Below the pieces are notes generated by a model. That model ran no database searches. It had not been told where the DNA came from and worked only from the letters and a program-made list of their open reading frames with translations. Both the position numbers and the translations under genes were made by a program. A stretch of DNA of 64,000 bases, from NCBI GenBank assembly GCA_964187785.1, contig OZ076409.1, positions 44,766,001-44,830,000 of the forward strand, written 5' to 3'. The DNA comes from Amphiscolops sp. MND2022 (lineage: Eukaryota). Below, piece after piece: positions 1-54,105 of the stretch. The number at the start of each line of letters is the position of its first letter. Position 1 is the first letter of the stretch.

Positions 1-3000
1 GCGCAGATATGCATGATTCCTTTGTCAAATCTTGTACGATTTCCAAATGAGTTGCTCTGGTAGTGAAACAAACGAAGACTGTGATATATGTTTTGTTGTC
101 TCGCTTCGTGGCTAATGGTCCTGCTAGATCAATTCCAGTGCTAGTGAAAGGGCGTGATTCGGTGATTGTTTCTGCTCGTAAATCAGCCTTGACTTAAGCT
201 GGAATTTCGTTTGAGAATCGGCTACATTTACGCATTTCTTCATGATCTTTGTGACGAAACTTTCTCCTATAGGAATTCAATATTCTTCGCTACTGGTATT
301 CAAAGTGAGCTGCCCCCACCATGAGAGGTAGTTTCATGAAAATATCGTTGTATCAAGCTGGCGAAGTTTGAATTGGCTTTGACTAGAAATGGAAACTTCT
401 TCTTTTCAAGAAAATTACCTTGCGAAAGTCGTCCTCCGACTCTAATGTTGTGTGTTTCTGTGTCGAAGAATGAACAGAGATTGAGTAATTTGCTTGTTTT
501 GGGCAATTCCTTTTGTGCTTGTAGAAGGCTGTATTCCTCTTGAAAATGTGTGGTTTTGCGAGAGATGAGAAAATGCAATTTTGCCTGTTGTAGTAGATGT
601 GACGTGATTTGACTAGGAATTTTGTCTTTGTTGAACCTGGAATTGGCTATTTTGACACTAGCAATCACTCAAAATAGCTTATGCAATATTGAGTAGACAT
701 TCTCTTTCAAAATTACCCGTGTTACTTTTTTTAGATAGACTCGTGGTAACTGTTTCTGTTTGATTGTCTTCGCATGGCTTTCTGTTTCTTTCTTCTCTCC
801 AAAGGATTCTATGGAAGTCTTGTGGTTCTTTATTGAGTGCGATCTATCTGTACATTTTTGCAATGTCGGTCGAAAGTGCGACTAGATGAAGTCTGAATTT
901 TATCAAAATTGAAAAGAGATCCTGTTGAATCATTGGTCCAACCATGAGAGTGTCATTTAGTGAAACACCTGAAGTGGATTTGGCGGAACCATCAAAAACT
1001 ACTCTGATTTTGTTTGTTGTGGAATCTTCTTTGTGGACACAATGATGCGGTAGAAAATTGATTTTTTCTGAGTCAATCTCGTATACCTCTTCAGGAACTT
1101 TCTCTAAATGCTGCAAAGTTATGAATTCATTCACAAAATCTGTTCAATCTTGCTTCAGTTTGTCATTGGCATGAACTCGTCTTTCTAGACTGAGAAATCG
1201 TCTTTTTGCTTGAACGTATTTATCTCCAAGTTTATGAGATTTTTCTTTGAACAGCATTTGAACTGTGAACCTGTTGTCCACTACTTTGGTAGTATCCTTG
1301 AAATGTTTTCCACAATCTATGTTATCTTGTATGAACTTTTCGACGGGTGGAAGTTCTTCTTACTCCCAGAATTTCTTTAGATCGAATGTTTCATTTATGC
1401 AAGGGAGGTTGTGAAGGTTGGACTGTAGCCTTGCGGGTGCTTGCCAGAGGCAACCCAACCAAAAATTGTGTTGTGAAATTTGAGACCATTCGGTTCCTCG
1501 AATTTTCCAACGCGATAAATGAGCCTGTCTTGTTGAAAGTTGGATCGACGAGTTCAACTGTCTTCATATTTAAAAGACCTTCTATGTAAAACGTTCTGCT
1601 GGGAACATTCTACGTTAGCTTGGGCTGGACAAAACCTGTTGTAGAAATCGATTTTACATAATTTTTGGACTTGAGATGCAACCGAACAAGTCTTGAATTG
1701 TGAGTTTTTGAGATGTCTTCAACTACAATGACTGTCAAATTCCGTTTTTCTCGTTTCATCCCCATTCTTTGAGGTGCTTCTTCACTAATGAAGTTTATTT
1801 CAGAGCCTATGTCAAGTAAAACTCAACAAGTATGAGTGTTGGAGGCGTGATCTTCAATTGTGACTATTGCGGTTGGCAAAACTCCTGCCGAAAGAAATGT
1901 CCTCTAATGCCCCAAAACAACTGAGTTGGACGTCTCCGCGTTTTTGGAGTGGGGTTCAACGTGTGAAAGCGTGTTATGCATGGCTTGGCATTTTTTGCAT
2001 GAACTTTTGGACTTACAGTCTCTTGTAACGTGTCCAGATGATAGGCAGTTAAAACAAAGCTTGGAGTTTTAAGCAACATTTTTTCTATCATTGAATTTGC
2101 ACATGAAAAGCTAGTGAGCTTCATTACAGCATGGGCAAGTTTCAATTGTGACCTTGTAACTTTGTGAAGCCGGAAAATGGGTTTTTTGGCTGTGAATTTC
2201 TCTTGATAATGACGTTGTTTTTTGGGAACTCTTAGTCTGAGTTAAGAGGTCGATGTATGACCCTAAGGCGCGAACACGCTTGTTGATGAATTCCTCGAAC
2301 TCGTCTAACGTTTCCCAATTTGTACCAGGACCGTGTAGTTCCCATTGTTTTTGAGATTCTTCGTCTAATTTTTGCCAAAGAAAGCGAATCAAATATGGAT
2401 CTCCACCTTTGACGTTCAAAGCGTTCAATGCCATCAAATTTTCTTCAAAGGCGACCATCAAATTGCGCAATTCAATTTCAATGGCTGATTCATTGGTTAG
2501 TGGTTGCAATTGCAAGATTTTATCAATGTGGGAATTGATAATTAGCCGTTTTATGTTGTATCTGATTCGTAATGATTTCAAGGAAACCTTTTAGTTCGAA
2601 GTAGAAAGAAGTATATGCGCTACTAGCTGCAGAGCTTCACCTGAAAGTGGTGACTTCAAGTAGTTGAACTTCTGTATGTCCGGAATGGAGCTGTTGCTAT
2701 CCACGGAGGCGATAAATTGTTCATAGAAAGGAACCCATTTCGTATATTGCCCGTCAAACATTGGTAAGTCGAATTCGGCATGTTCAAATGTCCTGTTCCC
2801 GAGGCTGTAACCGTCGAGGAAGTAGTAGCTGCGACTGCGTTGACCAGTGCTGGGTCTGGCGTTTCCAATTGCTGTAGGAAATTGTCTATTGTCTTGATTT
2901 AAGTTCGAATTCTCTCTTCACACTCTTCTGCGTTTACGAATTCTTGTTCCACTGCGGCGTCTTCGTCTGGTGTTTTCTCTAAGATGGCTGCATTCAGATG

Positions 3001-3460
3001 ATCTAAATCTGCTAGTCGTTCTTCGAGCTTTTCCTGTAGCCCTTCCGAGAAGATAATTTTAGCTGTGTCGATATCGGCATTTCCTTGTGTCAAAATTGTC
3101 TTGTTTTGAGCTTTGTTTTTGGTGATCACACAACTGATTGCTGAACGTGATCTTTTGAGTTGATCCAAACTTTTGCTTTCGTTTCTGCTTGTCATCTTTG
3201 CAGTGAATTTCTGATAATTCCTGATAATTCCTTGGTTGCAATGCACCAAATATTGTTGTATTTCGGGAGAGCAATGAATTGAAAAGAGAGAAAACAGACT
3301 GATTCATTGTCGTAATGTGGAAGAAAAATAAAAAAATCAAATGTGAAAGAGGCGTGAAAAAAGTCATTCAATCATGTTAAGCAATGTGTCAAAATCTGAT
3401 TGAATCAACAACGTCAGTTTAATCGAACGAATTTTTCTTCTTTGTACTCTAGTCTCAACA
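1..3460 (-). mobile_element. Degenerate BEL/Pao LTR retrotransposon (5' LTR, gag, protease, partial RT, integrase; runs off window start)
   Basis: Gag-like ORFs at 2899-3249 and 2111-2581; RT motifs FLPHHCVHKEDSTTNKIRVVFDGS...GPMIQQDLFSILIKFR...DIAKMYR (844-1134); IRVGGRL and H..HGG (300-668); RPFTSTGIDLAGP integrase motif near 120-160; many stops and frameshifts. Confidence 0.93.
3254..3460 (-). repeat. 5' LTR of the BEL/Pao element, followed by a primer-binding site at 3239-3248
   Basis: Minus strand reads TGTTG...CAACA, then TGGTGCATTG, complementary to a tRNA-Gly-type 3' end. Confidence 0.7.
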
Positions 3461-5144: not shown

Positions 5145-5497
5145 TCATCTTCTTGGCATTGCGTTTGGACTGAAAGTTCCTTTCATGGGAATATTGAAAT
5201 AAAGAGGAGACGAAGATTCCTGATCACTTTGTGAAGACTGATTGTTCCTTCTGATCTCTGCCCGATAATCTAACTCTGTCGCTATCTGGCACAAAGCGCA
5301 CAAGTCGCAACAAATGAAAACTGTTTTTAAGCAACAAAGGAAGTCATCCCTTTCGCAACACTTTTCTCTAGAGATTCCGAAATAGTTTGCCACTGCTCTC
5401 CTTAGCTTCCAGATGTTGAGTGACGTCATTATTACTCCTAGTCCGTAAAGACATGCCAGCATGAACAGAATCAGGTACCCGCGTGAGTTCCCTGAGC
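5145..5497 (-). CDS. PLAC8-family gene, last exon
   Basis: Branch point CTAAC and acceptor caacag|GC at 5497; LRR..FGI and CALCQIATEL motifs; stop at 5145. Confidence 0.88.
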
Positions 5498-8187
5498 CTG
5501 TTGAACAATTCACAGTTAGCATATAACAGTGCACAATCGTGTGGAAAATCACACTTCTTCAGAGGTTCTGAATACTTGAACTTGAATAACTTCTTTCAAA
5601 TCAGCAATTCATTGGGATTTTATTTTGATGCTTGAAAAAGTTTCTCTTTTTTCTATGCCTCTCCTTCCATTTTGGAACTATTTTGTAACACAATTAGATG
5701 CAGTTAGAAAAAATGAAGAAATGAAAGTTAATGCATGAGAATTCGATTACAATCTAAAGATTACAATCTCCAGACAGCAACTGGAGTTCAGTAAATTGAA
5801 GTTCTGAATTCCACTATTGGGTAATTTCAATTTTTTAGGCTAATAACGTTCCATGGGTTTGGAAATGATAAACGATGAACTTTTTTAGTGGAAGCACCTT
5901 ATTTAATACAGATTTTGTAGAGTATCTGTGATGAAACTCTCAAGTGAGCACAGTACGTTTGACTAGAGTACCAACCTGAGAATACTTGAGCCAGCGCAGC
6001 ACCCCAATAGATGAAAATGAAAATTAATGAAAACGTTCTGTAGTATACCGCCAGTTTGGCCATTTTCACATTGCCCGTTCCCATGGCGACCTTATGGCAG
6101 CAGGGATTGGAATGGTGTTTGTGTATCATCCTCAGGCGCGAAAACTCGACAAGCAATAGTGCTCTTTGCGTTGTGCTTTTTGGATATTTTGAAAAACGTT
6201 TTGTATGAGTGGGTGGTCAATATCAATTCTAGATATGAATATACACTAGGGTACAAAAAGACATTCAAATTTGTTTGACAAAAATTTTCAAATCGCAATC
6301 AAATTTTACATATTTATCTGACACAAAAGTCCCAGGAGCAAATCTTAAAAATTTTCATCACACTAACAGAAGTAATTTTTGTTTTGAAATTTAAAAGGTA
6401 TAGCACTTAGCTTCACTTTGACTTCCAAATTTATCATGAAATATCTTGAAAACCACTGTTTGTAACAAAATGCTGGCGACAAACTTTGTACTTTTGAATC
6501 AAATCTCTAACGTTTTACAATCTTCAACACTTTTTCTGAAAACACCATCCTTAAGAAATTATACATGGAAATGATCACAAACTGTGGATTCTTCAATTTA
6601 TACTCCGTCAAAAATTATTTCAACGGAATTACAACTGTTTTTGGTTGTTCATTTTTCGAAAAAGCATTTTCAGAAAAAGTGCTGGATAAAAAAGTTGAAT
6701 ACCAATGTCAGGGCTACAAAAATTATCAATGTAAGTTTTTCTTCAGACCTGTAAATTTTGAAATGTTGTGATTCAGTCATTCATTGGTTCAGAAAATCAC
6801 AAAATTTCCCAAAATACAATGTAATATAAGTTTTTATAGTTTGTTTCAATTTCGGAACGGAAAACTCCGTCGTAATTCCGACCACAATTTGAATGACTTT
6901 CACTCCTCTGACTTTTGTATAATGTATGTATTGAAAGATATGTATGCATTGAGATCGCGCTTTAAAATTTCGTTAGCCAAATTGAGTGCCTGTAGTTTTT
7001 TAGTACCTTAGTGTATATAAAATACATAGCATTATTTCTCATAACCTCCGAATAAATGACAATTTTTTTATTCGGAAAATGATTGGTTTACTAGTTTACT
7101 ATTTTCCTTAATTACTAATGATTCTTGGAAAAATTTCAGCTTGTTATGTCCTTCTTTGTATGGTACCAAAGCGACGAGTCTAAAAATTGCTCGTGGTTCA
7201 TATCGATGAGTGAACGACTTGATATCCAAAGGCAAGTCATCATAATCAAAGATTCAACGGTCAATGCCAAGACAAGTATTATACAATTGAGAAAACTATG
7301 AACTAATTACATTTGTACGAAAAACATTTTATGAGTAAATATGGAAAACTGCCCTGAAGCATTCATGGTTTTCCGATCCCTGCCTTGTATTCCGTAAGAA
7401 TCGGAAAAAAGAATGTCAATAAAAGCTGCTTTTTGTTTCCTCTGAAACATTTGAAAAGTGGAGTTTTCCACTCAACGTCAGATGCACCAGATACTGATGA
7501 CGATGACGACGATGATGACGACGATGATGACGACGATGATGATGTAATTTGATCAATGTCTGTTGCATCATTTGATGATGTAACTGTTTCAACTGTGTCT
7601 GATTGCAATACCGAGTTGTCCAATTGGCCACTGGGTACTGCTTCGGATGAAGGCTCCGACTCATTGTTTTCGGGCAGTCTTATCACAGTATAGTCCAAGG
7701 GCTTCAAAAATTTGATTTTGAGGAGGGCCAATAAATGGGCCAAATTATATAATTTTCTTAAAAATCGTGTTTGTGATTTTTGACATTTTTAGCGTAACTA
7801 TTTCGAAACTTGCAGCCTGAATTACTATGAGCAGGATGTTCAATATCACAGTTAGACTAGATTACACTGCAATCATAATGTACGAATGGCGCATCCGTGA
7901 AAATTTCTGAACAAGACATTTCAAGCTAAATTTTAACAGAAACAGTTAACGAAACTACTTTTTAAAAATTTTCTGTGACATTATTTTTACAAGAATTCAC
8001 AGTCCTTAAAACACTGAAGTTATGAATCCTGATGATTTAGTAATTCTCGCACAAATAAGATGCCAAGTGTTCCATCGTTTTCGGAGCCCTGTTGAAGGAA
8101 AAATTCAAGTGCTATAATAACCTCTAAATTTGTAATATTGACCGTAAAGTCTGACGGTGTGTCACAAGAAATAGCTTGATTGGCCAT
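5145..8187 (-). CDS. PLAC8/cornifelin-family cysteine-rich membrane protein, ~283 aa; exons 8187-8122 (tentative), 7701-7384, 6090-5976, 5497-5145
   Basis: Spliced product reads EWKTPLFKCF...LTFFFPILTEYK|VAMGTG...two hydrophobic helices...LRRAVANYFGI...CC..DD..CC....CCDLCALCQIATEL, the PLAC8 N- and C-terminal signatures; exon phases are consistent (0,0,1). Confidence 0.82.
5976..6090 (-). CDS. PLAC8-family gene, internal exon (VAMGTG...AQVFS, transmembrane helix)
   Basis: Acceptor cataag|GTC, donor G|GTTGGT; 115 nt; phases join exactly to both neighbouring exons. Confidence 0.75.
6101..7382. mobile_element. Non-autonomous hAT-like TIR element filling intron 2 of the PLAC8 gene
   Basis: Ends CAGGGATTGGAA / TTCCGATCCCTG (11 of 12 inverted match); decayed 8-bp TSD ccttatgg/ccttgtat; diverged inverted homolog at about 46370-47103. 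Confidence 0.7.
7384..7701 (-). CDS. PLAC8-family gene, exon with acidic/poly-Ser region and WKTPLFKCF motif
   Basis: Part of ORF 7363-7743; W.T.LF.CF...FF.P motif; ends at AAG|GCAGGG (GC donor); 5' boundary uncertain. Confidence 0.78.
7495..7543. repeat. (GAT/GAC)n trinucleotide repeat encoding poly-serine
   Basis: gatgacgatgacgacgatgatgac... run, in frame as ~16 Ser on the minus strand. Confidence 0.95.
8122..8187 (-). CDS. Putative first coding exon of the PLAC8-family gene (MANQAISCDTPSDFTVNITNLE)
   Basis: ATG at 8187, donor GAG|GTTATT, phase 0 compatible with acceptor at 7701; no homology support. Confidence 0.4.
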
Positions 8188-9109: not shown

Positions 9110-11100
9110 TTAGTCAAGTCCAATTCTATGCAGTAGCTGAAGAAACTTAATTCTGTTGCGATGTGGGTTTTGGACATATGACGTTGAAAGAATGTGTATC
9201 GACATCGGCGAGGTTGAAGGATGGTAAGACAAAAACATGACTAAGGCTGAAAGATTCGTCGATGTTACCGAAAGGATGAACTTTAAGAGACACTCTTTTT
9301 GTTCCCAAGGTTTCCCATTCGCGAAAACCTCCAATATCAAGTTTCACGGCTGCTGGTTCTTTGACAGTGCAATTCAAACTGTTTGAACAACTGGAGAGTA
9401 ATTAGCTACATGTACTTCCGGTGTCGATGAAAGCGTAGGTGGAGAAAATTATTGTCTTTTTCCAATGTTACAGCTACTACCATCAACAGGGCACCAATGC
9501 TAGCTTCTGTTTGGTTTTGTCGGTTAAGGAGCTATCTGCAAACTGAATACTTTGATTGGGCTTCGTCTTACTAATGAACGTTTCTGTTGTCGGTCTAGAA
9601 TTTGAGTTGTCAACAGTTTGTTCAGGTGTTTGTCGAGAGTTGTTCCTATGTCATCGTGTAAAGATGAATGGCGCTTGCGGCTGTACGATTGCGGCTGTAC
9701 GGTGTGATTTACAATCAGCCTTCAAGTGTTGTCCTAAAAAATTGAGACAAAGTTTTTTGTCTGAAACCATTCGGCGTCTCTGTTCAAGAATAGCATTCTT
9801 GTAGGTGGAGCAATGCGCTGGGTGAAGCTCCAGTTTGTCGAATGGGCAGAGAGGTTGATGGTGTTTGACTGGTTTTTCTTGATAGCTGGTTCTTGGGAAT
9901 TGAGCTGGAAGTCGGGCGATTGTCAAGATTGAAAGGCAGGTTATCACCAGCGAGTGCGAACTGTCTGATCCAAATGTTGAAATGGATGAGGCTTGATTGT
10001 TGTAAATTGTTAATCACAGCGTACTGTGTCCTCTGTAATCTCTGAGTAGGGGGCAACTTGTTAACGGCAAACACTACGAAAAGTGTCGGGTTCAGGTCAT
10101 TGGTGAAACCTAGCAACTAGAAAGTCTCCACGATATTATTGATGAAATTTGAAAACTCCGTGAAAGTGTGACGTTGCTCTATCGATGGTTGACGAAACGT
10201 ATGGAGGTGTTGAAGATTTCCTATATTGGTTTGCTATATCGATTTGCTATATCGGTGGTAAGAGTCTGGAGATGTGTCATTTTCTCTGATAAAGAATGGG
10301 TTGGTTGTGCATGAGAATTCTGATCAGACCATACCACAAAATCCATTTCATGGGATCTCCATCGTACGGTTCAATTTTCAATTTGGGTCGAATAAGATGA
10401 GAGAGGGTGTCATGTGACAATGTTTGTGCTCTGGAAGGCGTTGATTGACGGAGACTCCTGTTTGGCTGTGATCCATCAGAATATTGCGGTTGATTATTTG
10501 TTTCGATGTCAGAGAGAACTGGACCAGAATTACTGCAATGTACGCGCTGTTCGTCTGAAAAGTCGTCGTCGATTGTTCTATTGACAATTTGTTGACTGTC
10601 GTTCACGTTGTAGACTCCCATGGTTTGGATCGTCCAGTTGGCAGCTGCAGATGTTTGCATTCTCGAGAATTGGTCGGTCAGGTCATCGTATTCATCTTGA
10701 AAATTGGTGAAACCGGCAAGGAGTTGGTCATCGATGGCATTCTCGGGTAGATGGTCGAGTAGAAAGAGGGTTGATTCTTCGACATATGTGAGGGTTTTCT
10801 GTAGTTAATCGTTCAAGGAGCTGATGTCAAAATCGACATTTTCATCAATGGCTTTCTATATTTTGCTGAAGAGACGAGTAGTTTTGGCGATATAGAAAGA
10901 ACGCGGTGGGAGCGAAGTTTTTTGCTGTTTACCTTTGGAAGGCATGATAGATCGCAATATAGGATTTTGTAGACAAACACTAGAAAGATAGCTGGAACTT
11001 GATGCTGAAAATGGAAAAGCAAATGGCCAATTGGAGGAAGAGAAAAATCCAGAAATGAATCTAGATGGAGGTTACTCCAATGTGACACTGTCGGCAACAA
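9110..11100 (-). mobile_element. BEL/Pao retrotransposon remnant (gag and protease)
   Basis: PKLKIEPYDGDPMKW gag motif (10277-10660), decayed zinc knuckles CPF...H..HC and LCLN..GQH..ADC (9651-9947), protease YAFIDTGST near 9410-9445. Confidence 0.88.
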
Positions 11101-18564: not shown

Positions 18565-21500
18565 CTGAAAAACATCAACCGTGTTCTTAAAAATTGTCTA
18601 TTAGAAGTTTATTTTAATTCAAATACCAAAAACAGCAACGGATGAACAAAGTGCAGTGATTACAGCATTTAGTATGTACTGGGGTTGTATAGGTGTGAGA
18701 TGCAGATGTAAGACTGCCAATCACAAACTGAAAAACTGTCATAGTCTGAGAGTTGTTTAGTACTTAGCTGCAAATCGAGTGCTGACCTATTTATGTTTAT
18801 GTATAGATATACCATTGCACTTTGAGGATCGCATATGATACAGTTGAACAGAAGATCCATTCGCCACATCGTTTAACATTAGTTTTAGTTATCTTAATAA
18901 TAGGGTTCGATCATCAACTATCATTTTTGGGTCTTAAGCAGGTTCTTCATCATTGGTGTAGTGGTATGGTCTTGACAAAAAATAACGCAATTGGCGTAAA
19001 AAACAAAAATGTTCGATCTCTTGGTAGCAAATATGGTACTGTTGGTTGCTACGGGGAGATAGTGTCCGGTTTTAGAAAAGCTGAGCTGCTTATTCGACCT
19101 CCAAGTTGCAGAAGTGGGAAAGTGATTTTTTTCTTTCTTCTGAACTATCAAACAGTTTTCGCTATTAGTTCAAAGTTTTGGATATTTTCGTCAGTTTGAG
19201 CTTCCACCGTGTTCAAAAACAAAATACTTAGCAACTCGGAATTATTGGCAAATACCCCGATGCAAAGCGTGCATCAGGTTTGTGGAAGCGATGATAATTG
19301 CCCGGCCATAGGTCACAGTGTAAATTCTGTTTGCATCCTTCAATAATTGTACTTTGAGGACCGCATATGATACAGTTGAATAAAAGATTCATTCACCACA
19401 TCGTTGAACCTTAATTTTAGTGATCCTAACATTTACACTTCCTTTTTTCAGTGTACAAAACTTTTTCACTATTGAAATCAACTACAAACAACCACCACAA
19501 ATATAATATCTAAAGTTATACTAAACAACCATAAGTATCATATCAAAGTTACACTAAACGGAGAACATCAATCCAGTGAAAGAAAGATACCAGAATGTAA
19601 ACAAAAACGAAATCAAATTCCAGGAGAAAATATGGGTGGACGTGGAACACAACGGTAGAAAAGTCAAACTCCCTTTATTAGTCACAAAACGGAACGATAA
19701 AACACCCCTCGGAGTATATTGACTAAAACAACGCCAATTACTAACAACAAGGTCTTATTGGGAAAAAACCGACCAATCAAAAACAATCTACACAAAATAC
19801 AAAAGACTATTTGAGACCAACCACACCATAAACAACACCGAAGTGAAGACACAAAAAATCCGGAAGCTATCCGATACAACAAAAAGAACGACTAATACCT
19901 TACCACCAATAAGACGACGTGAAAAATAAACTAGACCGACTTACTAAATCCGGACATCTAGAAAGACTAAAAACGATCGAAGAAGACTGTTTCGTATCCG
20001 TACTAATTACGGTTAAAAAAGACAAATCAGTCAATGCGCGGAAATTAAAAGAGAGTTGCATCAAAAAGAGGCCACACATGCCGCATATGGACGGATTATT
20101 AAACCAAATTTCTGCCAAATTGTCAAAAAACAACCTACACATGATTTGGATGTCAGTGATAGATCTGGACTACGCTTACGGTCAAATGAAAATAAGTCAA
20201 CGGACATTACCGCCAGTATGGCTGGACGACATAATAGACATAACACACGGATCAAAGGAACAACACACCCAAAAATTATAGTCAGACCTAACAAAATGAG
20301 AAAATGAAGGCTTTAGAGCCAGCGAAGGAAATCAAAGTTTTACCAGAAAGAAACTGTATGGCTGGGACATACGATCTCACAACACGGCATAAGACCGAAT
20401 ATAAAGAAGACAGAAGCAATCAACAACCTAAATCTAACAGGAAACACGAAAATCATAAAATCCTTTCTCGGAGAAATGCAATACTTTGCAAAACTCATCC
20501 CAAATTCATCCGAAAAGACGGAAAACATGAGACAACTATTGAAGAAAGAAATAAAATGGGAATCGATGAAAGAACTCAACAAGGAGTTCAACAATTCAAA
20601 GAATGAACTTACCACACATCCGTGTCTAGCACACTACAACGGCAATAAAGGAAATATAGCCACAAGGGATGCTAGCAAAACCGGCCTTGGAATAGCACTA
20701 TGGCAAAAACAAACCAACGGCGACTTGAAACCCATTGCTTTGGCCAGCTGATTTTTAAGAGACGTTGAAACGAAGTGCTCCATCAGCAAACGGAATTACT
20801 GGCCGTAATCTGGGGCCTTAAACGCTTTAAATTCCATTTATACGGAAAACAATGTCAGTTATTTTTAACCACCAGGCATTGGACCCAATATTGAAGAAAA
20901 ATAAAAGAAGTAAACAAAATAGTGCCCGTCTAACACAATGGCTGGACATACTGAACCATTTCAACGTAACCCTAAAAGATACCGCTGGGAAAAAATCAAA
21001 TTCATCAGTTTTATTTGCCGTAATCCAACAGAAAACGCGTAACCGGAAGACAATTACAGAAAAGAATTTGCCATCAACGCCATCGCGCAACTTGTGACGG
21101 TAGGTAGCTGCATTGGACGGGTTTTCAGCCCATCAGAAACCACGGAAACAGAAAAGACGGCTGACATGCTTGATACGCTCGCGCAAACTGTACGCGCTGC
21201 CGCAAAATAAACAAGAGCAACTCTCACACAACCTTGACCACTAATCAGACTGCCGTTAATACATAACGCACCACTCATTTGCAAGCATTCATGAATGACG
21301 ATAACAACAACAACAACCGACAAAATCTGGACAAAATCAGCTGTAACCCTGAGAGATTCACTCGTGAATCCACGTTAAGATACCACTGGGGCGCTGACGA
21401 TGAAATCATGACTATCATCAACAAACGGAACAATTCACCAGAGACCAGAAAACTCGTAGAAAGGAGAATTGAGCTCACTGGATCCGGACATATGCGTTAT

Positions 21501-27500: not shown

Positions 27501-29505
27501 AAAAGATATTAGACAAGTTTATTTGCCCAACTTTCAAAAACTTCACTAGAAAACGTAAATCTTGACATTCTTTGTCCAATATTCGATCGTCAAAAACCTC
27601 CGAGCAAAATCACTAGATATGGAATACACCTTCCAAATGTTTCGAGCTATTTCGTGGGCTGGAAAGGTGTAAACATTCAACAACAGCTACACTCGGTTGA
27701 AATTTTTCAGTTTTGATTGAAAATTTTTTTTCTCGGTGAGCCGCATAGTGCCGAAAAAAAAAACGAAAAGAGGCCAGCAATCGCAGAATTATTAATTTGG
27801 GGGTTTCCTTTGAAATGGGCTAAAATGAGTCAAAGCTTTCTGTTCTCCGAACTTCTCTGCGTTTTTACAGTGCATTGGCTATTCTTGAGCCTTAAATTTA
27901 TGTAGTTGTAGAACAGTTTGGGGCGGAAAATATCTCGCTTCTCAGCGGGCGTCTTGCTTTTAAGTTTCTAAATACGACTCACAAAGTTTTAAGTTTCAAA
28001 TTATTCAATAAACGGGAGAAGACATCTGGTTTCAGAAACAACCGCTTCAAAAATTTCAAACCTCAAAGCAAAGTACCCAAGTATAACTGATAGCGAAAAA
28101 AAACAACCTGGAAACTCGAATCAAAATGCTTTTGCATACAATTGCGTGATTTGCTCTGTTGACAATGGATGACTTTTCTGCTAGTCAAAAGACTACTGAC
28201 TTAAGAAGAGGGTTTTGGACTTTTTGGGGAAAACATTATCGCGAAAATCAGCTCCTCCTAAAAAATCTAACGGTCATTTTCGGATTGAGACCAATACCAA
28301 TTGGGAAAATCCTCATGAAAAATTTCAATATCGGTCTTTTTGCCACTCTTTGATCATCGGCTCCCCTCGAATAACTTTCAGATTACTCATTTTCCCAAAA
28401 ACCTTTGGTGGAGACCAGAAATATGGAGAACAATGCTTTTTAGGCAGAAAGAACTTTTTGGTATTTTGACGAAGAGAAAAATCTGGACAGTATGTAACAC
28501 TCCTTCAGAAATGGTCGTAAAATGTGATTTTATTTGAAATTCATTTTTCTACACGTTTTCTGAATCAAAAGTTTGCTTTCGACACATTTATGAACATCAG
28601 TTAGTTTTTTCAACATTAAGGACAAAAACTGTCTTCTGCTTATATAGCCACACAAAAACCGTTGCTTTGGCTATTTTGAGTTTATAAAGAAAAATCAAAT
28701 GGAAAAGTTCAATTCGTTTATTACTTTTTGAGCGTGACGAATGAGGAGACGTTTGTCACTCTGGAGTAAAACGGGAGCTTTCAAGATTTCTCGAGTCGAT
28801 ATCAGCGCCCAATGATCTGGGAGAACATCTGAAGTCTTCTGGTTCTGTCTCAAGTCCGCCAAAAACTTCAAGCCTTTCAGGGCAATTTCGAACCACTTTT
28901 GATTTTTTGTCTTCTGGTACAGTTTCATCAACCCAAGACTCGCTTCGCCGGGATAGTAAAGGGAGACGAAATCAGACATTCCACTAACTTTGTTATATTT
29001 TCCATTGAATTCACCTGTAGGCTTTTGCATGAACTCGATAAATCGTGCAACACTCTCTAAAACGAACCAAACTGATTCTTTATGTTGCAATAATTCCATG
29101 TAAAACACATCTTTTGCGAGTCTCAGTGTATAAATGACCAAGATAGTGGAATCGTCGTCAAAAATTGACAAAGGCTCGATTATCTTCTTTTTGTCGAAAA
29201 CTGACAAACGCTCGAACGTTTTCATCAGTGAAGTAAATAAAATATTAAACTATACACTGAAAAAAGAAGTCTATGAAATACTTGCTAATATTGCATGGTC
29301 TTGGTAGCCTTAGTATGATCAGAATATACTGTTAGGATCTTCGCAAGGGCATCTGGTGGATTGCCACGAAACACTGGGACATATCGCAGCGAATAAAAAC
29401 CCATTGTAAATTTGGATGCATTTCAACAAAGCATACCCTCTCAAGTCAGCTGGTCCGATTTTTCTCATTTTTGAATACCCGATACATTGCAAATATAACG
29501 TTGCC

Positions 29506-29540
<35 letters not shown>

Positions 29541-32500
29541 AATTTTTTTCATCTTTTTACGGAAGCATAGCAATTCAAAAATTTTCCGGTTCAGTGGAAT
29601 CATTCATGTATGTTTAATACGATCAACTCAGCTTAGAACTTTTATTCGTTACTTGATTGTCATACAAACCTAGTTCATTCGTGGAAATGAAAGTTGCGTT
29701 GACTTCTGAAGCTGCTACCAACGCCACCAGACCCAAACCAGCTCCACCAAGCTTAGCTTCTGCTTCCGTTCCGTCCACTTCCGGTTTTTTGGACCATAAA
29801 GGCTTGATATTGAGGTGGTTGCTATCCATGGTTTCAGCTTGCTCTTTCAACCATTTCCCTGTTTTTACGATAGTTTCATTCAACTTAGAACTGGGAAACT
29901 CCTCCGCGATGACTGCTAGCGAATAAATTGTTCCAGCGTGGCGCAACAAATTGTAGTCCGGTTTTATTCGAACTAAGGGTTGCATGTTCACCTAAGAAGA
30001 CCTAATTGTCAAACAAAATAAAATTAGCAAGGGGCATATTCTCGATTTTCAACAAAGATTTTTTCAACCAGTATTCATTACTTCGATCGGACAGAACTAT
30101 GTAATTGAATCACCAGTTTTCCGAGCGATTGAATACCTTCATATTTAGCCAATAGCTCGTCGCTGGTTCAAAAAGAGCACTTCCGAAAATGCTAGCAGAA
30201 AACGACTGAAAACGTTTTTTGTATGGCAATTGTTTCTCGCAAATTCATTTGGAGAGAAACTAATTTCGACAGTGTAAAAGAAAAAACATTAACACCCCAT
30301 TATACCGATACTAAATTCAACGGTAGATTTTTGAACACAGAGGGATCTGAGTGACTGATAAAGGTGATCATTTGATGCGTTAAGCGTATTCAATGCTGCA
30401 ACAGTAATCACAATTTTTCACTTCGAAAAAGTCGCACAGTGCCGAAAAGACCAAAGTGGAACCCTTTTAGTTTAAAAAGGCTATTTTATAACAAGGTATT
30501 AAAAATTTAGAAGAAAAGGGTCACAATGGCGAAAAAAACCCTCATATTTTTTCAAAGAGATGATTCAAATGATTTTGTTAAAATGTGAAAGGGAGACATG
30601 TCACCTCAACCCGGGTAAGCCAAAAAGGTATGAGAATTCAAGCTGATGATATCAAGCGCAAAAAATCTTCCGTATGATTTATATGGTTCAATATCAAGAT
30701 CACATTATGATCAGCCTGGTTCAGCAAACCAGGGAACGACTACAAGTCGAACAAGACGGGAACGTCTAAAGTCAGCGCTATACTTAAGGCTCAAAAAGCG
30801 CAAGTTTTTAAAAATATAATCAAGACTTTTTTCATGAAAAACTCAAAAAAGTGTCAAAACACCCAAAGGGTGGCTTTCGTTCTCGGAAAACACTTCAGAG
30901 GTTCGGATATAGCTTGATGGGTCACACGGGAGCGCTTTTTTGACTCTCGGCCTCCTCTTTAGTAGAACGCAATATACTTTGGATATAACATCATAATTCG
31001 GATATAGCGCAATATTTTCCAACCTCGAACTCCTCTTTAGTGCAACGCAACGTATGTCGGATATAACGTCAAAAATTCAGAAAGTATTGACAAACATTAT
31101 TGGTGGATATATTGGTGGAAAAACGAAAACTTGGTTTGAATATTTTCGAATTTTTTTCCAAAAATAGTTTCCGATAAGCCCCATAACGCCGAAAACCCCA
31201 ATGTCGAACCCCTGCTGTTGGGGCGGCTTTGAAGGACCTTCTGAACTAGATGGCTGAGTTTCACTACTGTTCTTATTCACAATTGCCATCATTAAGCCCT
31301 TCAGTTGACTAAATTCCTGATGTAACTCGCTAATCTTTCGTTCGTAACTCTTTTATTTCAGACAGCTGAGAAGAGATATCAGAACCGTCATTGGTGTCAG
31401 AATCATTAGAGTTCGTCTGTGCCATGTTCAAGTCTTCAGGAGGAGCTGTTTCTAAGGAGGAATCGATGATTTTACCGTTTCTGAGCACTGTCCCTTGATC
31501 CTGACTCATATAAATAAGTGAAAACAGTTTGTGAGTAAAGACTGGATTTCTGAGATGTTTCACGGATGTGTTTTGTTACTTTATTGCTGAACGTAATATC
31601 TCGAATTCACTAATTTTGAACTGAGATGATTTAGAGATGAAAAATACAAAGGAAATTGAGTATCTAATAATAAGCGTGAATCCGAAAGTCAAATTGAGGA
31701 AATTCATCCAAGTTTCATCGCAATGTAGATTCGTCGGAAGATTAATCAGAAAGTACAGTTATCGTTATTGGAGGTGAATTGTAGATGTATTTTCTGGTAA
31801 AATTTGACCTGAATTATCCAACTGGACGGTAGCTAGTCGCAATTTCGGTCTGAGTAATCTCTAATGGCGGCTTAAACTACAGCAGTTCACGTGTCTTTTT
31901 AGGCTGGTAAGAAGCTAAATCTTTTACCAGCCTTCTCTCATTGGTTACTGCCGGTTGGTGTTAATTGGTAAGTCACGTGACCGGTGTTGTGAATTGCCGC
32001 AGGGTGGCCACGCATCATGATGAATCTACATATTATGTAAATGGCAGTGAATCATCAGTTTACAATGTCGCAATTGCCTGCACATATGACAGTGGTTACC
32101 ATAGAGATGAAAATAAGCTGAAAGTATTCGATACCGCACTAATTTCAAGCCAAATCAAGATAAAGTACATTGCGCGATGGGAAAACGAGGTTTTCGAGCT
32201 GATTGTAGCACTAAAAATCAATATTTTGCAATTGAGGATGGATATGTGATGAGAACATGAGAATATTTGCTGATTTTTCAAGCCCAGTTTAGTTCAGGAT
32301 GAAAATGCGATGAAATGCAGTCTTTCTCGCTTGAAAATCAACAAGGTCTAAAATGACGACGATGAAGAGATGAAATTCCTTCATTATTTGCTAATTTCCA
32401 GCACAAATTAGATTGGCGATGAGTTTAGGATGAATTCACTCAATAAACAGCTAATTCTAACACAAATTAGTTCAACGATGAAATAGGGATGAATCTGCTT

Positions 32501-35500
32501 TATAAATCAGACAATTCTAGTACGATTCAAAATCAGGATGGGTCAGGGATGAATTTACTCAACAAAACAGATAATCCAGCACATTCACTCTTTTTAAGAT
32601 GAATTAGAGATGTACTTTCTCATTTCTTTGTCCACTGTCCATGCGATGAAATAGAAATGAGTTACCGTCTTTAAGAAATGAGAAGCACATTTGGAGTTAC
32701 TAAATGTAATACGGCGATGAATTTAAGATGAATTTACTAAAATCAAGTCCCATAAAATCCGCTGATAGATTAGTGATGAAAATAGTCTGAAGTCCCAATT
32801 CAAATTCACTCGCAATTTTGGGGATGAAATTGCGATGAGTTATGGTTAAATAGTATCAGTGAACCCGCTGATGGATTCGAGTAAAATACCATAATCAATT
32901 CGTAGGTTCACTGTCCAATCCGCTGATGGATCAGCAATGAATTTCAGAGAAGGGATTGTCAGGACTATGGCTCTGAGGCGAGGAGCATGTAGAAGTAACT
33001 TAGTTCATCACCTTCATATCTCTCGGTCCAGTCTGACCGTAAAACTTCTCTTGTCGTGACAAACCAATATGAAAATTTACAGCACATTAAGGCTATAAGC
33101 AAGATCATTTGTGCGGACACCGGAACTAGAGCGCTCAGTATTAAGTAAATATATATAACTTACACTCAAAGGGGGGAAAGGGAATTAGGTACAAGTAACG
33201 TAGGGTTGCTCACAACCATGACTCTTATTATATGACTTCATATTGCCCATGTCTGAGTACATAAGACATATTATTTACATTACAGATATTTAGTAATCTA
33301 TATTTCCATCATGCTGGCATGACACCCAAAGAGACCTCTACGCTCGCAAAACGTTTTGTTTCTAGTGAAAATGGAGGGGAGCTTCGATGAAAACAAATTA
33401 AAACAAAAAGTCGCATAGTATTGAAACAACGCCCATCTAAAAAAATCGGATATGTCGCAATACTTTCAAACATCCGCTTCCTTCATAGTGGAACACAATA
33501 TACTTCAGATATAACGTCAGAACCTCAGACACAGCGCAAAATATTTAAAATTCGCATCGACTATCCCTTTAATAAAACGCAACTTAATTCGTATATAACG
33601 TCAAAAGTTCGGATATAGCTTGCTGAGTTACTGAGAAAACCTAATTTTAAGACAAAAACTGATCATTTTGAAAAATCTCACGAAGCCGAAAAAAGTGAAT
33701 GGGGACACTTTAGGCTTTTCTAACATCCAATTTGTTGCAAAGTATCAAAAAATTGAAGGCAGGACCCTTTGGAGACAATAAAAAATTTTCGGAATGAAGT
33801 CTCTCAGAGCCAACAAATCCAAAAGGGGGACTCTATAGCCTTGCCCGGTATTGTATCGTACGTTGAAAATGAAAAAAAGGAGACCCTTTGCAATAATTTA
33901 GATGGTTTTGGTTTGCCGGTCCAGTAGTTTAGTAGTTCTGTAAGAAATGTCCACTACGCATACATTCAGTTATCTGACGAAAATTGAAAAAAAAATGCTA
34001 ATGTATAAGTCGCGCTCATTTTCTACTGAAATGTGTCGACTAAAAACACTGAACTACTGTCGAACAGTATAAAAGCCAAAGGATACTTTTCTATTCAAAA
34101 ATTCTTCAAGGCCATTTTTATAACTGTTTTATACTAATGCTGCTACTCCAGCAATGCATCGAATTTTCGCAAGAACTTTTCGTTACCTGTCAAGATCTCC
34201 TAACATAAAATCTCGACAGAAATCTAGGGGAAAATGTTCTGAACAAAAAAAACTTAAAACATTTGTCTGCTCCACGTTAAAACCAGCCGATGGGCCCGCA
34301 TTGGGCTATTTTCCTCCGTTCGTTTCTGCATTTAGGGCATTATCGGAAATCACGACGCCCTAATTTAGCAGAAATTGACCTAGGAGATATTCGTCAAGAA
34401 CCATTCAACTTAAAAGATTTTTACATAAGATAATTGAACTTAAAAGATTGATTTTCACCTTGATATCAGAATAATATACTTGGACATAGTCATGAAATTT
34501 CATTGATAAAACGAAATATTCAGCTTGATAAACAGGCGAAAATGTCTTTAAATATTTTTCAATCAAGGAAATCAATGACGGGAACAAACTAGGATATGAT
34601 TTTTCTTCACTAGGGAAGAGAGAGCTCTTTTTCGCTCCGTACGGTCAATCAAGAGAAGGTGAGTTGTGTCTTGAATTGTGTCTTGAATTGTGTTGTGTGA
34701 GCTTAAACGAAACTTTCTATACAAAGTAGAACGCTGAAAACTTGCAAAACTACATTCAAACTTCCCAAATCAATCAGATGAGAAATTAAAATTTCAAAAT
34801 TGACATTCAAGATTGCCAAATCGACATTCAATTTTAGCCATCCCTCCGCGGACCACTACTCACATATAGCTCGTAAACAGAATTGAGGAATTACGCCGCT
34901 ATACGAAGTAGCATTTTGGTTCTTTTTAGCTCTTCAGTAGCATGATAGCAGCGCATGATAATCTTGAATGTCTATTTTGTTAATTTTGAATTTCTAATTT
35001 TTGGAATCAGCCAAATGGAATCTAGATTGAGAAAGGATTGATTGAGGTGTCCAAAATAGTTCTACCAAAAGTTCTACTTCAATTTTGGAATCAATTTTGG
35101 CATCTAAGTCTTTTTTGGCCATCTACATATTATATTTTAGCTGTAAACGAGTCCCCTTAAACACGACCCATACCAGATTTAACGCAAATATAAAGAATTC
35201 CGAATGTTACAAAAGGGCCCCCTTAGATTTTTTTGGCGCAAACCGGATTTAACGCAAACCGGATTTAAGGCAAACTTGATATAACGCAAACCGGATAAAC
35301 CGAATTCCGGATATAACGTATACCGGATATAACGTTTTTTTTAAAAAAAAACCGACGAAGTGACAGATGTTGCTTTTAGTTTTTTAAGACCCCCTTCAGG
35401 TTTTTTGATATTTTGTAACCGAATGGATGTTAAAAAATCCCAAAGGGTCCCCCTTTCAGTGTTCTTTGGGCATTGTGAGACTTTTTAAAAAATATTCAAT

Positions 35501-38261
35501 GTCTCCAAAGTGTCTCCCTTCCATGTTTTGATATTTTGCAACAGAATGGATGTTGAAATTTTTTGGAGCCTTGGATATAGCGTCGCCTTGGGTCGTTCCC
35601 GGCTTTGAGAGCTAACTTGTAGAGCCGACTAAAGCTAATTGAACTGTAGGTGTTTGGTTCATTATATAACGTACCATGGTTGAAAAACCTATTTCTTGGG
35701 TATTCCTGGTCGAAACTACCAGGAGGAAAAACTCGTCGAAAAGCAACTCATCGAAAATTCTCTAGCGGAAAACTCGTCGCAAGAACAGAAAATAATCTAA
35801 ACAAATACAGCGTTAACTTTGGGATCGTACTGTGTTATTAAGTTCTCACCTATCATTAAGCATTACACTGTAAATTATAAACGTGAAATATTTCAAGCAA
35901 TTATATAACTAAAAAAAGCTATATTATGCGTAAAACTGAACTTTTCAAGCATCAATTAAGGAAAATAAATCCATAATTAGCACTGGATAATCCCTGTTTG
36001 TAATCTGTAATTAATCGACGAGTTTGCACACTTTTATTCGACACGTTTGCACTGTATTATTCGACGAGTTAATTTTCGAGCAGTTTTCCGCCATTTAATT
36101 TCTACCCATTTCCAAGATAACGTTTTTTCAGTTGTGCTCTATGGATCGTCACTGATAGCAGACTTCTAGCCTTGCAACGCTTGTTAATCTCAAAGACTTT
36201 CATGTTATCAAAGGGTGGTTTTTTTCTCAATTGTCCAAAATGTTCTATAATTTATTCGGATATGTCATCCCTAGTTGAAATTGCTTGAAACTTTTACATG
36301 ATTTCATAGGCTACCAAGCACTTTTAGCATGATTTTGGGAGTTTCATAGACAATCATTAATGCAAAATAATTCTCTGATGCAATGCTATTTCTTCAAGTA
36401 TTTATTAGGATTTCTATACAATTTGGCGGGTTTTCAGAGCAACATCAAGAAAATCAAAGAACAAAGTCCCCGCAAAATTTTGCAGGTTTGCGTGGGCAAA
36501 ACCTCAAGTTTTGTAAGCACAGACGCTACAATATGTTGTAAGCAAATAGTCAACGCGTGGCAGTGTGGCAAACAAATTCGTATTACTGAATTTTTTTTCA
36601 GTGGGAAAAATTTTTTTTTGCATGAAAACTGTCGGAATGAGCTATATTTATCACTTTTCGGGTTTGCAAAAACGAAAACATTTCCAAATAAAAGTTCTAC
36701 ACGGCATTTTTAGGGAACTACTTTGAAACGGAATATCAAAATAAGGCTGTCTTGATTGGTTGAAATTTCAATTCTTTTTTGATACGTTTTCAGCGTCAAA
36801 AAATCTGACGGACTAACGGAAAGGACTTTTACAGCTTTTTGTGAGCATTTCTGTTGAAGTTTTTCGAATGAGATGAAAAATTTGGTGTTTTTCAGGAAAA
36901 AAAACTCAACAAAATTTTTCGAACTGAAAAATTCTAATCCAAAAATTTCAGTCAAATTTTGGCCAATGTGTATTTCATTTATCTTCAACTTTAGTCCTTA
37001 TTCCGGTAACACCATTTTAGTGGTGGAAAAACGCCTAAAATCCCTTCATTTCGGTAAAATAAGGCCTAAACTTTACTGATTCATCAATTTTAAATGTTAT
37101 TCCAGTGTTTAGACGTATCCTCAACTTTTTTAGTCGTTATTCCAGTGTTTGGATCTTTAATCTTTAATTTTAGTCCTTATTCCGGTAACATCATTTTAGT
37201 GGTGGAATAACACCTTAAATTACTTCATTTCGGTAAAATAAGGCCTCAATTTTACTGAATCCATAAATTTTAGTTGTTAATACAGTGCTTGGACGCATTT
37301 TAGTCGTTATTCCCGTGTTTTGACGTTTTTTCATTAATTTTAGTTATTTTTCAGAAAAATCTTTTTTTAAATATTCTCGTTTTTCAGATTTGCTTTGAAT
37401 TTCTTCAGTGTGCTGCAACTGTTCATTCAAGAATGGAATTTTCTCAACCCAAAAGAAGGTGAGCTTTTTTTAAAGAAAAATAAAAGGAATCGTATAACTC
37501 TCATCAATAAATCCTTTGATATCCAATATTGGGCATACTGTTAAGAGTTTCTGTCAGACTAAAATATTCTGGAGAGAATCTGTATTCCTTTTGAAAAGTA
37601 TTGTTTTCAACAATTTCAATAGGAATATTTTTGAATGATAGGATGTTTATCATCTTATTAACCCGGTATATTTACAAAATACAATTTAGTCATCAAAAGA
37701 TTTATTTTTAGGATGTCATTAGTCAATTTGAATGAATGGCAAGCGAAAAGTTTAAAAGCTTAGCGCCGTCATTTTAGTCAACTCAAGTAAACTTGCGTGT
37801 TGTAAACTACGTTAGCCAAAATTTCGCGATTTCAACGAGCAAATCCAATTCAACGTGTGATGTCTACAAATAAATATTTAGTTCTAGCATTTTTTCACCC
37901 TTTCTAGAAATACGACCTATCAAGAGCTCATTTGTCAATCACAAGCAAACCTTTTAATATGGCTTCAATTTCTATAAATTTAAATTCTCACCTTGTATAC
38001 AAATTGGCCATTCGGTTGAACTTGAGCCAACAAGTAATCTTGTGCCAAGATGATCCTTTCTTTCAGAGTCCCTGTGCCGAAATGCACTCGCATACTTCTA
38101 TGTTTCTCCTTTGGAATTTCTTCATTTTCCACGTTAATTCCCACGTCATTTGTCTCTTCATCTGGAGCTTTGATTAATTTGTAAACGAAACAAATACAGA
38201 GAAATAAGAAAAATAAACGAAAAAGTTTTGAGTTCGATCTGATCAAACGATGCAAATTCAT
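18296..38261 (-). CDS. Five-exon gene, 433 aa: signal-anchored protein with a bacterial-like (alpha/alpha)-barrel domain; exons 38261-37992, 29991-29670, 29056-28725, 24160-24052, 18564-18296
   Basis: All introns GT-AG with consistent phases (0,1,0,1); 1302 nt open frame; motifs in order GQFVY, YNLLRHAGTIYSL, AKLGGAGLGLVAL, SLYYPGEASLGL, PDHWALI, PACTRLEGL, GGFR, IRIDYVQH. Confidence 0.88.
18694..23307 (+). mobile_element. Degenerate Ty3/Gypsy LTR retrotransposon in intron 4
   Basis: LTRs start TGTGAGATGCAG at 18694 and 23083 (after PPT GGTGGGGAAA); ATAGG 5-bp TSD; RT (IDLDYAYGQMK), RNase H (DASKTGLGIALWQ), integrase (LHFGHPGINKM) remnants. Confidence 0.92.
18776..19348 (+). repeat. Direct duplicate of about 23184-23757 (3' LTR half plus downstream flank)
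   Basis: Near-identical sequence; ORFs 18822-19199 and 23230-23577 translate almost identically. Confidence 0.95.
24052..24160 (-). CDS. Exon 4 of the barrel-domain gene (absent from the ORF track)
   Basis: ttttcttttgtag|GTG...GAA G|GTTATT; encodes VATHLIMEQIHSTNKPKIQWSFDSRGGLAPACTRLE. Confidence 0.85.
25473..25973. mobile_element. hAT-like MITE
   Basis: CAGGGATGTTCAA / TTGAACACCCCTG inverted ends (12 of 13); clustered GATTAATC motifs near both ends; TSD not recognisable. Confidence 0.65.
28725..29056 (-). CDS. Exon 3 of the barrel-domain gene
   Basis: gttttag|AG acceptor, AAA|GTAATA donor; YYPGEA and DHW motifs. Confidence 0.88.
29511..29539. repeat. (CT)n microsatellite
   Basis: About 14 CT units in intron 2 of the barrel-domain gene. 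Confidence 0.97.
29670..29991 (-). CDS. Exon 2 of the barrel-domain gene
   Basis: ttcttag|GTG acceptor, G|GTTTGT donor; YNLLRHAG and KLGGAGL motifs. Confidence 0.88.
30750..34046 (-). mobile_element. HINE/Helentron copy interrupted by a solo LTR
   Basis: AACAAGACGGGAACGTCTAAAGTCAGCGC at 30750 and decayed palindrome ending GTCGACTAAAAA at 34046; family-typical GGGACCCTTT blocks at 33700-33900. Confidence 0.7.
31202..33324 (-). mobile_element. Large solo LTR (2123 bp) with 5-bp TSD, internal repeat array and 3' ORF
   Basis: TGTC...GACA ends flanked by CCCAA on both sides; MSQDQGTVLRNGK... frame (about 31509-31202) runs to the LTR end. Confidence 0.82.
35190..35606 (+). mobile_element. HINE-related fragment with a ~16-bp tandem repeat (CCGGATATAACGCAAA-like, 35235-35335)
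   Basis: Family blocks AAGGGTCCCCCTTT and decayed 3' end GAGCCTTGGATATAGCGTCG... Confidence 0.65.
36990..37330. repeat. Degenerate tandem repeat, two units of ~179 bp
   Basis: TTTAGTCCTTATTCCGGTAACA.CATTTTAGTGGTGGAA at 36990 and 37169. Confidence 0.85.
37992..38261 (-). CDS. Exon 1 of the barrel-domain gene (signal anchor and stem)
   Basis: ATG at 38261; basic N-terminus then LFRLFFLFLCICFVY; ends GQFVYK AAG|GTGAGA; start codon choice is inferred. Confidence 0.8.
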
Positions 38262-38718
38262 CTTCAGTTTATTGTACGTGTAGACGATGAATTGGTTCGG
38301 CAACGTAAAACAATGCGTACATACAACAAAGCTGTGAATAAAACATGAACTGTCACAAAATTTGATCACTTTTGACATTCGGAAAAAAAGTATTACGTAA
38401 CAACGCCACACGAAAACACGTGAAACACGTTTTTATTCGTACTTCAACAAACATTCATGTTATAAAAGCTGCCATGCAGCTCAAACTATTCGTAACTTTT
38501 GTTTTTGACTTCTAGAGTCGAATTCATAATCACACACCAGTCGGGTTTGTGAGTTAACACGGAATTATTACATTGACATTTTGAATTCTAATGCTACAAT
38601 TTCGTATTTGACTCACAACATGCCGGTTCTTTTTTGTTCTCGAGAATCCTTCTTATTTTTGGAAAAAAAGATCGAATGTGGATTCAATTCGAACTATAAC
38701 ACTTCATTTTCATCTCTA

Positions 38719-46369: not shown

Positions 46370-47103
46370 AAGTTTCTGAAACTTCGATGAGAATTACAAC
46401 GGTAGTTTTAGTTTTAAAGTCAAATCAAGTTTTTTAGTTCCGTAAAATCACATGGTATTTTGAGTTATTTTGGAATTTTCCGTTTTCATTATGCAATATC
46501 TAGGCAGAAAAAACTCTCTCGATCAATCTTGTAGCCTTTACACCATTCTTTAACTCTTATAACGAACACTTTTTCTGAAAATGCTTTCTGAAAATGAAAA
46601 CCCGGAAACAGTTGTAATTCCGCCGGAAATCATATTTCCACGAAGTAAAATGAACAAATTGCAATTTGTTATCAGTATGCAGGGTAAAAATTTAAGGAGG
46701 TCGTTTTCAGAAAAAATTTATAGTCAAAAGTTAGAGATGTAATCCGAGGTGCCAAGTTTCACTGCGACACTTTTTTTACGAACAGTCGTTTTCGAGATAT
46801 AGCATGATGAATTTCGGAAAACGCAAAAAACTCGAGTAGGCCAAGTGTTTCAATTTTTGCAAGTTTCGTTTTCTTTTAAAACAATGAAGCAAGTATCCCT
46901 AAATTTTGATCAGAATTTGAGATTTTTGTGTCAAATGCGGATGTAAAAACTTATTCGGATTTGAAACTTTTTGGATTGTGAAATCGACTGCGTTTAGCTC
47001 TTAATTACTCTAATGAGTGGTCTTTGCCTGATAATGTTTTCAAATCGGATGAAAACTTTCGTGATGACGATACACTAAAGGAAAGATAGGCGTTCAATAC
47101 CTA
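46370..47103 (-). mobile_element. Diverged copy of the hAT-like element found in the PLAC8 intron
   Basis: Reverse complement shares blocks with 6100-6900 (e.g. CGGAATTACAACTGTTT...AAAGCATTTTCAGAAAAAGTG) and ends TTCAATACCTA, resembling the TIR. Confidence 0.65.
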
Positions 47104-53920: not shown

Positions 53921-54105
53921 AATAGATAATTTCGAATTTTTATGGAAACACGCTGGAATATTTTGATCATACTCTCGAAGAGTTTTGATAACATTTGCGT
54001 TTTAACAACATTCTTTTACGCGCATGATTAGAAATTGCACTGAAAAGTTTGTTGCCGGTGAGGAATAATAATACAAGATGAATCATTCCAACACAACTGA
54101 TGATA

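Follow-up and report, generated by a model that had tools for sequence, protein, structure and literature searches.

hAT introners have been catalogued in Polarella, Symbiodinium, Panicum, Trifolium, Salvia, fungi and Styela clava (Gozashti et al. 2025, PMC12130899). Supplementary file 8 of that catalogue gives, for Polarella glacialis fam9, CA/TG termini, 8-bp TSDs, GC donors in 629 of 980 cases and the entry 'co-opt both', a table row from which fam9 may be taken to use the same split donor as the elements described here; Panicum virgatum fam14 and Trifolium repens fam4 (6/7 GC) appear in the same file as other hAT-class introners. Styela clava fam1, the one animal hAT row found in PMC12130899, has 6 copies with mostly non-canonical sites. 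Introner families in which both splice sites are wholly or partly recruited from the duplication are described in passages of PMC9860276 (Gozashti et al. 2022), with few animal cases.

Two further systems are close in geometry. The introners of Micromonas pusilla are non-autonomous DNA transposons removed without change to the mRNA, with an acceptor AG taken from the target duplication (PMC11282704, PMC9860276), as would hold for the present elements; they differ in having a 3-nt duplication, a donor carried whole and thousands of copies (PMC11282704), against 8 nt, a split donor and the tens of copies seen here. In the protosplice-site insertion model (PMC3443670), as here, a duplicated target that resembles an exon junction yields both donor and acceptor; that model needs a whole GT in the target and admits any transposon, whereas here the target is AG/G and the end of the element completes the donor. 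With the donor completed by the element's own end, the target requirement is therefore one base looser than in that model. A transposon insertion at a protosplice site was reportedly described for maize Ds by Giroux et al. in 1994, and Ds is a hAT element.

The system described here shares with the hAT introners of PMC12130899 a hAT-type TIR, an 8-bp duplication where one is recorded, target-derived splice sites and frequent GC donors. It differs in its uniform GC-AG sites, unlike those of Styela clava fam1, its intact and near-identical autonomous parents and the minority standing of its intron-forming copies. The literature consulted, including passages of PMC9911081 and of bioRxiv 10.1101/2024.12.01.626237, does not describe the present system, an absence that is not proof that it is unpublished, and acoel names were not found in 12 supplements of PMC12130899. 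The evidence gives good support to regarding the system as a new animal example of an already known kind, a hAT introner by all features tested, with splicing as we infer it from sequence.

The putative intron and its PLAC8-like gene

The window, by which we mean the whole 64-kb stretch of DNA analysed here, lies on contig 1 of a genome that was searched as 1.07 Gb in 13 large contigs. Its minus strand carries a PLAC8-like gene with at least three exons (A, B and C), and the segment between A and B (7383-6091, minus strand, 1,293 nt) has a 12-bp inverted repeat at both ends and what appears to be a decayed 8-bp target duplication. The features, in window positions, are as follows.

7384..7788, minus strand: open frame holding exon A, in which a Ser-rich stretch precedes the conserved motif of the N terminus; the exon's 3' end is at 7384
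7383..7390, minus strand: left copy of the putative target duplication, seven exonic bases ending AG plus G 7383, which is intron base +1 (from sequence and family geometry)
7371..7382, minus strand: left TIR of the hAT element, its first base C being intron base +2 of the GC donor; 11/12 identical to intact autonomous ends
6101..7382, minus strand: old hAT-type element, non-autonomous, made up of a nested MITE and some 500 bp of its own; interior without detectable homologues
6244..7013, no strand assigned: nested MITE, 770 bp, with its own inverted ends and TA flanks; source of a match at 46 kb
6101..6112, minus strand: right TIR, 12/12 identical to autonomous ends; 9/12 bases pyrimidine
6098..6100, minus strand: 3-nt spacer that repeats the last three bases of the terminal repeat
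6090..6097, minus strand: right copy of the putative target duplication, made up of five intronic bases that have drifted, the acceptor AG (6092-6091) and the first exonic G (6090)
5976..6090, minus strand: exon B, 115 nt; the intron after it is an ordinary GT-AG one
5145..5498, minus strand: exon C, which includes the stop and encodes the Cys-rich PLAC8-like motif of the C terminus

A sequence-only reading of the window had claimed that removal of a GC...AG segment joins 7384 to 6090 in frame, and the frame is indeed kept. The product of A, B and C spliced at GC (7383) and AG (6091) scores 68.1 bits against a PLAC8-like profile and aligns without a gap over the junction, whereas the alternatives (exon A read through, exon B skipped, or B and C alone) score 27-32 bits against the same profile, which was built from 12 intronless paralogues of this genome found among 30 loci cut out of 88 Pfam matches. 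That reading also held that no GT donor precedes the in-frame stop. The stop is at 7365-7363, and from 7447 down to it there is indeed no GT; those at 7448 or farther upstream, if used, would remove the conserved N-terminal motif. Candidate acceptors for exon A itself (7756-7653) are all weak, and exon C has one copy in the genome at the sensitivity of the search.

Searched as single exons, the gene gave no PLAC8 match in Pfam, and the locus was not among the matches of a genome search with Pfam PLAC8. We call the gene PLAC8-like because of its paralogue-profile score and an ESM Atlas feature match (0.90, with PLAC8 in 24% of the matched cluster). No orthologue was found among longer proteins in a weak search, and no close paralogue was found in the genome. 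The PLAC8-like family as a whole is much expanded here (88 Pfam matches); many members are intronless, with two hydrophobic stretches inserted in the domain.

The claimed inverted repeats are real: 7382-7371 and 6112-6101 are complementary at 11/12 bases. Their spacing is also as proposed, the left repeat starting 1 base past the donor G (7383) and the right one ending 10 bases before the end of the acceptor (6091). The AG ends 7 bases past the terminal repeat in other family members, and the additional bases in the window's copy correspond to the spacer, which is probably the product of later slippage. When the spacer (6100-6098) is allowed for, 7390-7383 and 6097-6090 match at 5/8 positions; without it the 8-mers match at 3/8. 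Pyrimidines make up 14 of the 20 bases that precede the acceptor AG, and the right TIR supplies most of this tract.

One proposal did not survive. A diverged copy of the interior at about 46370-47103 had been taken as proof that the intron's element is dispersed, and this match, like every other one to the intron in the genome (50 besides itself, with 40 of 1,256 candidates scored), covers the nested MITE only (intron ~7020-6240). The 46-kb copy was accordingly rejected as evidence for dispersal of the outer element. The intron is thus two elements, a MITE inside an older hAT-type element. The MITE, which we take to be Tc1/mariner-like by its TA flanks, is 66-70% identical to its 12 best relatives (30-34% diverged). 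The outer 5' and 3' parts of the intron match only themselves in a genome search.

Elsewhere in the window there is a Tc1/mariner element (54104-55324) whose inverted ends are 31 bp long and whose transposase is split (DDE_3 and HTH_Tnp_Tc3_2 matches), and decayed pieces of LTR retrotransposons with DUF1759 and RT/RNase H matches lie at 300-3303, 9651-10804, 19913-20751 and 62551-63165. A repeat pair at 18777 and 23185 may be LTRs. Several exon-like frames of one gene occupy 28695-38432 on the minus strand, with a hydrophobic N-terminal stretch and no Pfam match.

The hAT clade that matches the termini

The terminus 14-mer of the family occurs at 223 places in the genome, compared with 1 for the reversed control. 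The copies are mostly non-autonomous elements of 400-1,400 bp with 8-bp duplications, and some have broken transposase frames. One such broken frame, used as a query, gave 150 scored matches out of 1,065 candidates. Among 30 loci cut out, six intact copies of 1,838-1,854 bp carry the same 12-mer at their ends, contain a frame of 536 codons and are flanked by perfect 8-bp duplications; they are 99.7-99.95% identical to one another, and the family has therefore moved recently. Among unselected copies, each of the eight duplicated positions matches in 44-47 of 48 rows, although this match had some part in the choice of the ends. The first five terminal bases are common to the clade and its sister families, one of which comprises 836 ends. 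A 501-bp MITE of a sister family lies in the window itself (25973-25473, minus strand), with decayed flanks at a site without an open frame, as an ordinary insertion.

A profile of seven transposase frames matched Hermes alone in the PDB (E 4e-7, 33 bits), over the catalytic core and the C-terminal region. The elements are thus like Hermes and other hAT transposases (PDB 4d1q, 2bw3, 6dww) in these regions, in short TIRs and in 8-bp duplications; they are unlike them in that the present transposase is distant (33 bits) and in that Pfam matches, seen in sister frames to hAT dimerisation (E 0.002) and the BED finger (E 0.004), fall below the curated cut-offs. The 536-codon frame itself has neither of these Pfam matches, and single broken frames gave no useful match in Pfam or PDB; intact frames were needed. 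The 8-bp duplications, together with a predicted hAT-type transposase between the same repeats, place the genome-wide family in the hAT superfamily. The guess that a whole family exists thus proved right, autonomous hAT parents included, but the family is not dedicated to making introns. Two groups of compact, intact 1.8-1.9-kb hAT elements in near-identical copies (L185-L188, L191, L193; and L167-L169, L171, L172) are candidates for currently active animal transposons.

The window's copy is presumed to belong to this family from its termini, that is, from its two 12-bp ends and their spacing. Over 12 bases its ends agree with the autonomous ends at 11 and 12 positions; over 22 bases the agreement falls to 12-16. 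The interior of the outer element has no homology to the 45 other elements collected, and an nhmmer search with this element over 280 loci gave a best E of 0.02. With its 5/8 duplication match, 3-nt spacer and interior without homology, it is among the most decayed copies of the family. Old copies in this genome have lost the interior similarity on which the scans of PMC12130899, as described there, depend.

Insertions at AGG targets and the genes they interrupt

AGG stands directly before the terminus (a donor-plus-terminus 15-mer) at 19 places in the genome and at none in the reversed control. Both ends were found for 16 of these 19, and six have perfect duplications; the latter bear out, in younger members (6/16), the proposed geometry of a donor G and acceptor AG from the 8-bp duplication and a donor C from the TIR. 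At the right end, the mirror pattern matched 13 times (control, 1), five of these at new sites with both ends found, and the sister-family pattern gave 90 (control, 4), of which 70 were examined. These 90 matches overstate the number of independent events, as one flank recurs 20 times among the 70 and another 12 times. Of 94 AGG ends in all, 19 without a partner end were left out and the remaining 75 collapse to 42 distinct sites. Both orientations occur, and two loci (L043, L044) begin with the end opposite to that of their relatives.

The recurrent flanks correspond to two amplified insertions. One AGG-flanked sister-family MITE sits inside another repeat that has been amplified at least 20-fold and is non-coding (L198 and 19 more loci). 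The other is the same AGG-target hAT insertion at 12 loci (L197, L210, L213, L218, L219, L233, L238, L241, L248, L252, L257 and L259), within the reading frame of a dispersed element (63 + 107 codons, no Pfam match); this multi-copy element apparently kept spreading with a potential intron inside it. Three pairs of near-identical loci with the same insertion (L156/L157, L230/L231 and L034/L035) are local duplications or unpurged haplotypes.

Of the AGG-target sites, 20/42 have 35 or more open codons to each side in the sense direction, and 8/42 in antisense. In a comparison set of flank-blind ends and 20 transposase-selected elements, an open frame on either strand is present in 4/48 rows (P = 3e-5); six of these elements are counted in both orientations, which makes 4/42 distinct. 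The other 22 of the 42 AGG sites lie outside long open frames, and many are non-coding. None of 69 unselected ends is flanked by AGG (two tandem copies and one known AGG place having been removed from the first 72 listed), and genome-wide 9/223 ends are, with ~2.4 expected from base composition by a hand estimate. We therefore rejected the family as a dedicated intron-maker, given these 0/69 and 9/223 ends and the position of most insertions outside reading frames.

Drift within the duplicates was counted by eye at the sites selected by their left AGG. All 17 coding sites retain the right AG, while 19 of 85 bases differ at positions 1-5; with the window site removed, since its right end was set by hand, the AG is kept at 16/16 and 16/80 bases differ. 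In the other 20 left-AGG-selected sites the AG of the right duplicate was lost five times. Retention of the AG amid drift of the duplicate is the pattern that would be expected if the acceptor works.

Twelve genes with a Pfam match on at least one side of an AGG insertion, in addition to the window's gene, were identified as hosts. By Pfam these are a member of the Hsp70 family (weak), a Cys-loop receptor, RRP9, bestrophin, a 3'-5' exonuclease, a dihydrouridine synthase (on one side short of the 35-codon threshold, with 31) and a WD40 protein, together with BBS5, a C2HC finger protein, a member of the ribosomal S5 family, a spectrin-repeat protein and a ubiquitin hydrolase. Several of these insertions share interior sequence, and related elements thus appear as predicted introns at several unrelated loci. 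After GC-AG removal, RRP9 is exactly colinear with a 70-77% identical relative, P0001 (residues 342-441, a split codon, then 443 onward), a relative that is itself only ~36% identical to the nearest named animals. BBS5 abuts exactly (Pfam positions 131/133, mammalian residues 137/140), and bestrophin is colinear within one residue. The Cys-loop receptor, bestrophin, spectrin-repeat and BBS5 genes, together with the best matches of RRP9 to animals, indicate an animal whose lineage evolves fast. hAT copies also lie in the frames of other transposons (L158, L263, L169).

Origin of the intron and its meaning

We infer splicing, the order of events and the membership of this copy, and consider it very likely that a hAT insertion in a PLAC8-like coding exon became a GC-AG intron. 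An old non-autonomous hAT transposon would have entered the exon at an 8-bp target ending in AGG, and the hAT transposase would have duplicated that target. The last G of the left copy and the first base of the element, C, would then form a GC donor behind the exonic AG; the AG of the right copy would serve as acceptor, preceded by a pyrimidine tract that the terminal repeat, C/T-rich on its reverse strand, would provide. Splicing would take out the element and exactly 8 nt, restoring the original mRNA. Because both ends carry the same repeat, either orientation should work and the target alone would decide. The clade would insert widely, with the few copies at an AGG target in the sense strand of an exon surviving as introns. 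In later drift a second MITE would have entered the intron, the free bases of the right duplicate would have changed and the interior would have lost its similarity to the family. The geometry, the family, its hAT parent and the restored frames are direct observations; survival of these copies is attributed to selection rather than targeting.

The donor of the window's intron fits the U1 consensus at -2, -1, +1, +3, +5, +7 and +8, presumably as a strong GC donor should. Searches for U1 genes gave 23 matches. In the standard pairing register, 20/20 copies fetched have the usual A opposite intron position +2, and the 5' end is fully usual in 12 of these 20. A compensating U1 variant was rejected for lack of any change opposite +2 in these 20 copies, and an altered U1 is therefore not needed; the genome does not share the changed or missing donor-pairing end of U1 that marks altered-spliceosome introner systems (Fritillaria, Amoebophrya type). 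The U1 copies fall into three sequence types. Three of them (L272, L279, L285) share an identical foreign upstream sequence in place of the 5' end and are probably pseudogenes, and three others (L278, L283, L284) carry a single change in the donor-pairing end, at a base other than the one opposite +2.

About 290 codons over the three exons are still open, while the younger MITE nested in the intron has diverged by ~30%; several stops would be expected by a rough hand estimate if the locus were neutral. Drift in the right duplicate has changed its free bases and spared its AG and G, and the same geometry interrupts housekeeping genes, RRP9 and BBS5 among them. It is accordingly improbable that the insertion is an unspliced disruption and the PLAC8-like locus a pseudogene, even though the GC donor and an acceptor that reads AAG, not YAG, are weak sites, one copy of so large a family may be dispensable and hAT copies are also found within the frames of other transposons.

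We give as little credence to a second possibility, that this codon already held an intron, whose AG/G junction was duplicated when the hAT element inserted at the boundary, or whose interior the element replaced later, so that the position was not gained. The element and one duplicate fill the intron from end to end with just 3 bases unexplained, the 12 distant paralogues are continuous over the junction region and younger members show the same geometry with perfect duplications; this has to be set against the fact that AGG is the usual exon-junction (protosplice) sequence and that many paralogue matches are split into pieces. It is less probable still that the inverted 12-mers arose by coincidence in an ordinary GC-AG intron with no relation to the hAT family, as an interior without homology, an imperfect duplication and the spacer might suggest, since they match the ends of an active family at 11/12 and 12/12 bases, lie at +2 and -10 of a single intron and occur at only these two places within the 64-kb window.

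On the favoured reading, insertion into the coding exon, the locus bears on the question raised in PMC3443670 of whether some transposons cause intron gain through target preference or through their own sequence. In this genome numerator and denominator occur together: the autonomous parent is active, ordinary ends number about a thousand, and exon insertions at targets with one ending form a minority. The question is therefore testable within it. Intron gain here looks like selection acting on a by-product, with no special element or changed U1 required. The window's intron, with its nested insertion and drifting duplication, shows how such an origin fades, and suggests that searches based on termini would find older gains than current scans do.

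More tentatively, and at clearly less than even likelihood, the terminus shared by the clade may be pre-adapted to complete a donor and provide a pyrimidine tract, such that any exonic insertion at a target ending in AGG would yield a scarless intron with an ordinary U1; there could then be hundreds of GC-AG introns of this origin, and a hidden share in other animals. If so, introns of this kind would be missed by similarity-based introner scans, and the genome would hold a running age series, from polymorphic new introns through fixed ones to old ones recognisable by their 12-bp ends only.
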